The notes under the pieces are model-generated. The model made no database searches. It was not told the DNA's origin and saw only the letters and a program-made list of their open reading frames with translations. The translations under genes were made by a program, and so were the position numbers. Below are positions 14,352-15,761 of a stretch of DNA of 64,000 bases, piece after piece (the first letter of the stretch is position 1; each line of letters begins with the position of its first letter). The DNA comes from Acidobacteriota bacterium. Lineage in GTDB: Bacteria; Acidobacteriota; UBA890; WLXD01. The stretch covers positions 3,136,001-3,200,000 of the forward strand of contig CBDFKD010000002.1 in assembly GCA_965248695.1 (NCBI GenBank), read 5' to 3'.

Positions 14352-14985
14352 GGTAGCCCTCCCAGAGATCGACGTAGACCACGTCGCCGGCGACGGCGCG
14401 GTTTCCCCAGAGCTCGTCGGAGGTGAACTTCACCGTGTAGACGTACTGCGGCTCGCGGCTCAGCCGATAGCCCTCTGTATCGGTGTCCTGCAGGCGGTGC
14501 AGGCCGTGGTGGCGCACGACGGTGCCGCGTCGACCGCGCACGTAGGCCGGCAGACGGATGTGGCCGCGGCGCTGGAGGTTGCGGGCGCGCACGTCCTGTT
14601 GCGGGGAATAGCGTGGCGACGGAACGTCGTCCTGCGCCGGCGACTCCTGCGGACCCGCCGATTCCTCCGAGCCATCCGCGCCATCGACCGCGGGCGCCGA
14701 GCCGGGCTCGGCGCGACCGCTCTCCAGCTCCGCCGCCGTGATGACACCGTCGCGAATCAGGTTGGCAACCAGCCCGGTGAACCATCGCTGGTAATACGGC
14801 ATCCGCAGGTAGTCGGCCGCCGGGATGTTCTCGATGGCGTAGCGGAAGCTGCGGTCGCCCAGCACGCCCATGAACAGCAGCCCCAGCACGCGGCCTTCCC
14901 AGGGCTCGTGGAAGACGGGCTCGTCGGCCTCGGGCTCGATCGGCCCCAGGCCGTCCATGCCGCCCATGTCGTGGATGCCGTTCAT
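14338..14985 (-). CDS. nthB: Nitrile hydratase subunit beta
   Basis: [37 protein letters not shown]. Confidence 0.95.
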
Positions 14986-15761
14986 GCGGCGCCCCCGTCC
15001 TCATCGCCGGCCGGCGCGGCGATCTTCGCCACCCCGATCATGGCGTCGCGCGAGACGATCTCGGCCAGCTGCTCTTCGGTCATGTCCTCGGTGCCCGCTG
15101 GTCGCTCCGGCAGCACCAGGTAGCGGATGTCGGCGGTGCTGTCCCACACCCGCACCTCGATGTCGTCGGCCAGCTCGAGGCCGAAGCCCCGGAGCACCCC
15201 GCGCGGATCGATCACCGCCTGCGAGCGGAAGCCGGCGGACTTGTACCAGACCGGCGGTAGGCCCAGCGTCGGCCACGGGTAACAGGAGCACAGGGTGCAG
15301 ACCACCAGGTGGTGCACCTCGGGCGTGTTCTCAACTACCACCATGTACTCGCCCTCGGCGCCCGCGAATCCGAGCTCGGCAATCGCCGCGGTGCCGTCTT
15401 GCAGCAGTCGAGCCTTGTACTCGGCGTCGGCCCAAGCACGCGCCACTACCTGGGCTCCGTTGCGCGGCCCGATCTTGTTCTCGTACAGGTCGACCACCTC
15501 GTCGAGCGCCGCCGGATCGACCAGCTCCTTTTCTACCAACAGTGACTCCAGCGCCCGCACGCGCAGGGCGATGTCGGACGGCACGTCCTGGTGCTCGTGG
15601 CCGTGTTCGTGATCGTGGTCATGCACTTCGGTCGATTCCTGCTCGGTGGTCGATTTCGGGGTAGCGCCGACGTGCCCCTCGCCGACGATCGATGCGGCGG
15701 CCGCAGCCGCGCCCTTCAGGAACTTCCGTCGTCCGGTGCCGTCCTCGTCGCTCTTCGACAT
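14982..15761 (-). CDS. nthA: Cobalt-type nitrile hydratase subunit alpha with Tat-like leader and His-rich linker
   Basis: [10 protein letters not shown] (Co-type CTLCSC-Y); GRRKFLK leader; [18 protein letters not shown] 9 nt upstream of ATG. Confidence 0.95.

Follow-up and report, generated by a model that had tools for sequence, protein, structure and literature searches.

Nitrile hydratases (NHases), enzymes regarded as cytoplasmic, are of major importance in industrial biocatalysis. Their metal-binding motif carries Thr and Tyr in the cobalt (Co) type and Ser and Thr in the iron (Fe) type. Among the complexes carried by the twin-arginine translocation (Tat) pathway, the small and large subunits of [NiFe]-hydrogenases and DmsAB are examples of hitchhiking, and the corrinoid-cobalt reductive dehalogenases are Tat substrates as well; we know of no described Tat substrate with a non-corrin cobalt, oxidised-cysteine cofactor. 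Here we analyse a stretch of 64,000 nucleotides from an Acidobacteriota bacterium (hereafter the window, to which all positions refer) that contains nthA, a gene for a Co-type NHase alpha subunit whose product begins with a predicted Tat signal peptide.

The solved chain nearest to the nthA product is 3qxe_A (2e-92), for which the PDB title reads 'Co-type Nitrile Hydratase alpha subunit'; we take 3QXE/3QZ5 to be the Co-type NHase of Pseudomonas putida NRRL-18668, with P14K as its activator. The locus in the window resembles this enzyme in its alpha core, its His-rich N-terminal tract, its alpha-beta-accessory gene order and its TIGR03889-type accessory protein, and the alignment with 3qxe_A spans query residues 45-247, the His-rich tract included. 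However, 3qxe_A starts at the His-rich tract and has no twin-arginine leader; relative to it, the nthA product has some 45 extra N-terminal residues, which hold RRKFLK and a hydrophobic stretch. Thiocyanate hydrolase (SCNase), a cobalt NHase homologue, shares a homologous gamma/alpha subunit (TIGR03887, 2dd4_C), and 2dd4_C matches the nthA product at 4e-46. Like the Tat hitchhiker complexes, the system in the window has a signal on one subunit, presumably cytoplasmic, accessory-driven cofactor insertion and a translationally coupled partner gene. In contrast to those complexes, the exported enzyme would contain non-corrin cobalt bound by oxidised cysteines, and we recognised no Tat proofreading chaperone dedicated to it among the genes of the window operon.

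Separate Co and Fe motifs exist in NHases, as stated in the accessible part of PMC2667541. A literature search, with subscription journals and supplements outside its reach, yielded no description of a signal peptide on an NHase or a thiocyanate hydrolase, and none appears in the accessible parts of the accounts in PMC3462710, PMC6852473, PMC11928666, PMC11672702, PMC2667541, PMC8067395, PMC5744179 and PMC6504805. The Tat signal that does occur in the thiocyanate papers belongs, in the accessible text of PMC5744179 and PMC6504805, to thiocyanate dehydrogenase, an unrelated copper enzyme, and not to SCNase. It is likely that automatic database annotation of such leaders is already in place. This is apparently a known enzyme with an unexpected targeting signal that has so far gone undescribed.

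Results

The nthA product and its leader

The gene and the features within and ahead of it are as follows.

14982..15761, minus strand: nthA, Co-type NHase alpha subunit precursor (ATG start, 259 aa; PF02979, TIGR01323)
15663..15761, minus strand: predicted Tat signal peptide, residues 1-33, with an acidic n-region, RRKFLK, a hydrophobic (h-) region and a possible V-G-A site before T34
15714..15731, minus strand: twin-arginine motif RRKFLK, residues 11-16, from the sequence and homologue conservation
15771..15774, minus strand: GGAG ribosome-binding site, 9 nt ahead of the ATG, from the upstream sequence
15591..15623, minus strand: His-rich tract, residues 47-57, between signal and core, from the sequence
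15282..15299, minus strand: metal-binding motif CTLCSC, residues 155-160, followed by Y161 (VCTLCSCY), Co-type, from the sequence

Judged by its domain matches, nthA encodes an otherwise ordinary cobalt NHase alpha subunit. Residues 63-245 match PF02979 (Pfam NHase_alpha; 5.9e-88, 293.5 bits against a cut-off of 27.2), and the NCBIfam equivalog model for the NHase alpha subunit, TIGR01323, gives 300.5 bits against a cut-off of 249.85. The thiocyanate hydrolase model TIGR03887 scores 175.5 bits, below its cut-off of 291.45, and the product is therefore not an SCNase. No variation was seen in the CTLCSC and Tyr columns across 120 homologues (the best 120 clusters from a collection of 5.8 billion proteins, 65-79% identical to the query). 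In the genome of the organism itself (5.89 Mb, 96% complete), nthA is the sole NHase alpha gene. The His-rich tract was considered as a trait specific to the Tat-bearing forms and rejected as such: it is also present in the leaderless 3qxe_A and in the leaderless homologues P0048 and P0110, and is thus a trait of the subfamily that is not tied to Tat forms.

Residues 10-16 of the product read G-R-R-K-F-L-K, with Gly where the Tat consensus (S/T)-R-R-x-F-L-K has Ser/Thr. An initial annotation of this locus had proposed an N-terminus fitting RRxFLK, a good ribosome-binding site, a His-rich linker with a normal Co-type core (CTLCSCY) and a beta subunit without a leader. All four statements are borne out: RRKFLK occupies residues 11-16, GGAG lies 9 nt 5' of the ATG, linker and core are present in the sequence in agreement with PF02979 and TIGR01323, and the beta subunit begins MNGIHDMGG, with the Pfam NHase_beta_N alignment starting at its residue 1. 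In an AlphaFold2 model made with a 31-sequence alignment, residues 1-44 have a predicted local distance difference test score (pLDDT) below 50 with a lone helix at 12-23, and the core is folded, as expected of a signal peptide plus linker.

Conservation and selection across the leader

An RR motif is present within the first 40 residues in 116 of the 120 homologues and within the first 60 in 117; the three clusters without it (P0002, P0048 and P0110) have their N-terminus at the His tract or close to it. Of the 117 RR-bearing homologues, 81 carry exact RRxFLK, and R11, R12 and F14 are conserved in at least 90% of the 120, F14 being nearly invariant. The Tat target region model TIGR02811 matches 106 of the 120 at E<=0.01, presumably in every case below its whole-protein cut-off. 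The leader sequence varies among lineages, with the RR, the hydrophobic stretch and the small-residue architecture kept, as in MTRRGFVTGAGAAA, MDGTRRSFLKAAVTAAGAAATPGLAQAQ and NVTRREFLSKSSLAASGAAIGA.

At the codon level, the first 34 codons of nthA differ from those of a 74%-identical relative (locus L002) by 17 synonymous and 10 non-synonymous changes, with eight synonymous changes in a row across the Ala-rich h-region, and the leader codons differ from those of the nearest relative (L039) by 3 synonymous changes and 1 non-synonymous change. From these two comparisons, we conclude that the leader is under purifying selection in the nthA reading frame. The excess of synonymous changes argues against an untranslated leader and a start at the downstream GTG (V46), a codon that is not conserved in the 31-sequence alignment. 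The initial annotation had named the conservation of RRxFL in the closest NthA homologues as a check on its Tat proposal, and a start at this GTG (VHDHDH) as an objection to it; the motif proved conserved, with RR in 117 of 120 and exact RRxFLK in 81 of 117, and the downstream start is disfavoured by the synonymous leader changes and the lack of conservation at V46. On the comparative evidence, the leader is neither a chance occurrence nor a mis-called start; it is a real conserved feature.

Operon partners

Three further genes accompany nthA on the same strand.

14338..14985, minus strand: nthB, NHase beta subunit, 215 aa, without a leader (TIGR03888, 198 bits against a cut-off of 152.2)
13971..14351, minus strand: NHase accessory (activator) protein, 126 aa, no signal (TIGR03889, 94.4 bits against a cut-off of 46)
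13229..14026, minus strand: HupE/UreJ-family membrane protein, putative Co/Ni importer (PF04955, 6.1e-24)

By gene content this is a Pseudomonas putida-type cobalt NHase operon (alpha, beta, accessory, HupE/UreJ importer). The start of nthB overlaps the nthA stop by 4 nt (ATGA), and translation of the HupE/UreJ gene probably begins at an internal Met (about 13966-13936), right behind the stop of the accessory gene. Members of the HupE/UreJ family are described as putative Ni/Co transporters in the accessible text of PMC2667541.

Distribution of the leader

The named genome collection contains 77 related loci, headed by Acidobacteriota (Vicinamibacterales, Bryobacteraceae, Acidiferrales and Terriglobia). 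A regular expression applied to the upstream frames flagged 17 of them: 13 were retained (L001-L005, L009, L011-L013, L029, L034, L039 and L045), and four (L048, L068, L071 and L075) were dropped because the RR lay in Arg-rich read-through without a start. With L021 (RRDWL), which was added by eye, the Tat-bearing loci number 14 of 77, and all are labelled Acidobacteriota except L021, from a metagenome-assembled genome labelled Proteobacteria. Alpha and beta genes always adjoin in the Tat-bearing loci, and beta there aligns from residue 1. The alpha-beta-accessory order is found in 11 of the 14, the exceptions being L009 (alpha-beta only), L012 (which stops at a contig edge) and L039 (a truncated copy). 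Around the Tat-bearing operons, the recurrent neighbours are alpha, beta and accessory only, with HupE in 3 of 13; the HupE/UreJ gene is linked to the NHase operon in the window, L001 and L002 only.

In an even sample of the phylum to which the window belongs, an NHase alpha subunit was present at E<=1e-20 in 24 of 401 genomes, and the leader was recognised by eye in nine of these 24 (G000, G130, G275, G324, G069, G118, G055, G333 and G215), among them all five genomes of the window's genus. Family f34 is mixed, with a leader in G324 and G333 and none in G110. When proteins were represented at 50% identity, a leader was seen by eye in seven of the best 150 representatives (P0122, P0158, P0161, P0166, P0170, P0181 and P0192).

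A core-only tree was built by quick maximum likelihood (LG+G4, SH-aLRT; 104 rows, unrooted), two loci and three proteins with matches shorter than 150 residues being left out. The Tat label changes eight times on this tree against about 25 times in shuffles, that is, the Tat-bearing rows cluster; the starred branches force just one change. Among the Tat-bearing rows stands a leaderless clade of Vicinamibacterales that is well supported (96*). As the root was not inferred, gains of the leader are indistinguishable from losses. In the leaderless relatives, the start (MAKS.../MAES...) is unchanged and the His tract is retained, and only the RR and the h-region are missing; together with the mixed family f34, this is what a targeting module that can be detached would produce.

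The distribution survey also turned up several rearranged forms. In G275, a same-genus relative, the copy syntenic with window positions 13971-15761 (L039/L108) is truncated, such that alpha residues 1-174 run straight into the beginning of the accessory gene, with beta absent; it adjoins the NHL-repeat and APH-aminotransferase genes. The same genome has a second, intact Tat-bearing operon (L002/L086, 74% identical), located between homologues of the open reading frames (ORFs) at 19780-20496 and 21872-23497. Seven NHase alpha representatives of about 310-335 aa (P0163, P0208, P0226, P0227, P0238, P0244 and P0254) have an extended N-terminus that begins M-x-G-x-H-D-x-G-G, like a beta subunit or an accessory protein, which suggests that they are fusions of an accessory-or-beta N-terminal part with alpha. 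P0214 and P0228 are apparent full beta-alpha fusions.

Genomic context

The genome encodes Tat components, with two matches to TatC (PF00902; best 215 bits) and three to TatA/B/E (PF02416), all over the cut-off. It also holds about a dozen paralogous ORFs (354-839 aa) that have in common a nearly identical long Tat-type leader, M-K-K-[ST]-D-R-x-L-G-M-D-R-x-I-[ST]-R-R-D-F-L-N-G.

Nine full-length amidase-signature paralogues are present in the genome. About six of them have signal-like N-termini by eye (C2:3985325-3986668 on the plus strand, C2:1533739-1534803 on the minus strand and four others), two with RR motifs and one with a lipobox-like LAGC. An exported amidase partner is therefore possible, though unlinked. 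No amidase was found beside a Tat-bearing operon when 8 of the genome's amidases were compared by tblastn with 104 loci (L001-L077 and L084-L110). Amidases adjoin NHase operons only at the leaderless loci L040, L042, L043, L061, L065 and L073, and none of these amidases has a signal. The amidase gene of the window (4281-5954) was considered as the exported partner and rejected, as its product lacks a signal and, from a probable internal start onwards, is taken up entirely by the Amidase domain; it is presumably a GatA-like housekeeping enzyme. Aldoxime dehydratase (PF13816) had no match in the 96%-complete genome, a result of little weight because the control matched no genome either.

On the other side of nthA, divergent from it, lies a gene for an NHL-repeat beta-propeller protein (15646-17148, plus strand), whose ORF, as listed, runs across the alpha leader on the other strand; translation likely begins at an internal Met instead, ahead of a lipoprotein-like signal (…ALALAAC). 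This gene stands next to the operon in the nearest relative only. The ORF at 17260-19632 (plus strand) encodes a 790-aa protein in which a phosphotransferase (APH) domain is fused to a class-III aminotransferase domain. A tmRNA gene (12260-12613, plus strand; Rfam RF00023, 166.8 bits), for which ARAGORN gives the tag peptide ANTPVALAA, lies about 600 bp past the end of the operon, and a long, perfect-looking hairpin follows it at about 12618-12722. A genomic island at the tmRNA gene was considered and rejected: GC content is unremarkable, and the window contains no second tmRNA 3' end, so nothing points to an island inserted at this site.

Discussion

Taken together, the conserved motif, the kept architecture and the codon comparisons indicate that the twin-arginine signal on the nthA product is genuine, and we consider it probable that cobalt is inserted in the cytoplasm and that Tat then exports the complex with beta carried along. 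In this scheme, cobalt would enter the cytoplasm via HupE/UreJ, the accessory protein would load it into alpha, the active-site cysteines would be oxidised and alpha would join the leaderless beta, all before export. This cytoplasmic loading and assembly step is drawn from the established maturation of Co-type NHases; a subunit-swapping step in the maturation of the Co enzyme is summarised in the accessible part of PMC11672702. The Tat translocase would then read RRKFLK on alpha and export the folded, metal-loaded complex, with beta as the hitchhiker, and signal peptidase would cut off about 33 residues, so that the mature alpha in the periplasm would begin with a flexible, His-rich stretch. 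There the enzyme of this Acidobacteriota cell would hydrate nitriles to amides. The reason for the Tat route would be the one that commonly applies to Tat substrates, namely a cofactor that can only be assembled in the cytoplasm.

Several observations weigh against export. The generic Tat hidden Markov models give marginal scores for the nthA product: TIGR01409 reaches 17.0 bits against a cut-off of 16.7, clearing it by just 0.3 bits, and PF10518 (Pfam TAT_signal) stays under threshold, with 17.7 against a gathering score of 22.7. At E<=0.01, these two models match just 57 and 27 of the 120 homologues, respectively. The uncharged run after RRKFLK is 11 residues long and ends in Glu, the corresponding run is shorter than 13 in 32 of the 117 RR-bearing homologues, and many homologue h-regions are highly Ala/Gly-rich (median Kyte-Doolittle value, 0.96). 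The putative signal peptidase I site, V-G-A at residues 31-33 before T34 (A-G-A or A-Q-A before Q in many relatives), is a weak, by-eye guess, since such triplets abound in Ala-rich sequence. Against L001, the leader codons show 10 synonymous and 11 non-synonymous differences, which suggests loose selection outside RRxFLK and the Ala core. In addition, no exported partner (for instance an amidase or a Tat chaperone) was found to be conserved beside the Tat-bearing operons.

Tat h-regions usually comprise about 12-20 uncharged, moderately hydrophobic residues, and a TATFIND-style threshold is 13. The initial annotation had cautioned that the h-region of the nthA product is short and weakly hydrophobic; the first half of this caution holds, at 11 residues, but the second does not, as the mean Kyte-Doolittle value is 1.63. 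Among the 117 RR-bearing homologues, the uncharged run has a median of 18, is at least 13 in 85 and is exactly 11 in 19, by a crude counting rule under which four homologues receive a value of 1 owing to early charged residues. When the organism's own genome was scanned crudely for N-terminal RRxFL, 70 candidates emerged, false positives included, and several of the plausible Tat leaders have uncharged runs of 11-13 residues, which places the nthA leader within the range of the organism.

The marginal scores, the h-regions that are short or highly Ala/Gly-rich and the lack of an exported partner conserved nearby would also suit a translated, conserved Tat-like 'remnant' that acts in the cytoplasm, either as a docking site for maturation or proofreading or as a membrane-proximal tether. 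Vestigial Tat motifs do exist in some cytoplasm-facing molybdoenzymes. However, the full RRxFLK in 81 of 117 homologues is not degenerate, the signal architecture is kept across lineages despite sequence drift, and leaderless sister enzymes retain the accessory gene, so that the leader is not needed for maturation; we therefore regard a cytoplasmic role of this kind as unlikely. If the signal does work, its cargo could still differ from the assembled enzyme, with alpha exported alone or an apo-enzyme metallated or assembled outside the cytoplasm. The confinement of the signal to alpha agrees with this, as does one alpha subunit that is active alone with its metal site fully modified, according to the accessible text of PMC11672702; however, the same text places the NHase active site at the alpha-beta interface. 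Moreover, alpha and beta are encoded by overlapping genes (ATGA), which are invariably neighbours in Tat-bearing loci, and the accessory protein has no signal, for which reason metallation should be cytoplasmic. Such a cargo appears quite improbable to us.

The remaining alternatives turn on where translation starts. Initiation at both the ATG and the internal GTG at V46 would yield an exported and a cytoplasmic form of the same enzyme, and an AGGA about 10 nt upstream of GTG codon 46, together with a Val at this position in L039 as well, could be taken as signs of it. However, Val46 is not conserved in the 31-sequence alignment, and we think that there is only a small chance of dual localisation by this means. 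A mis-called start, with translation from downstream alone, an untranslated leader and an ordinary cytoplasmic NHase, would be in keeping with the long spurious open frames of a GC-rich genome, but it conflicts with the protein-level conservation of the leader (117 of 120), with the synonymous substitutions and with a GGAG properly spaced from the ATG, and is highly implausible.

If the preferred reading, Tat export of a cobalt-loaded alpha-beta complex, is correct, the NHase described here would be the first known Tat cargo of the non-corrin cobalt, oxidised-cysteine-ligand cofactor class and would offer a natural two-subunit hitchhiker system open to direct testing. It would also locate nitrile hydration, with the nitrogen scavenging or detoxification that it serves, in the periplasm of abundant soil bacteria. 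A naturally exportable NHase could also simplify whole-cell biocatalysis, because the substrate need not cross the inner membrane. We further put forward, as a tentative and rather doubtful extension, that the nitrile metabolism of Acidobacteriota and certain other soil bacteria may take place in the periplasm, where a Tat-exported NHase would act before exported amidases release ammonium. In that case, the compartment of the enzyme would be switched per lineage by the gain or loss of about 30 codons, and nitrogen from plant- or microbe-derived nitriles would be harvested, or nitriles would be detoxified, without import.

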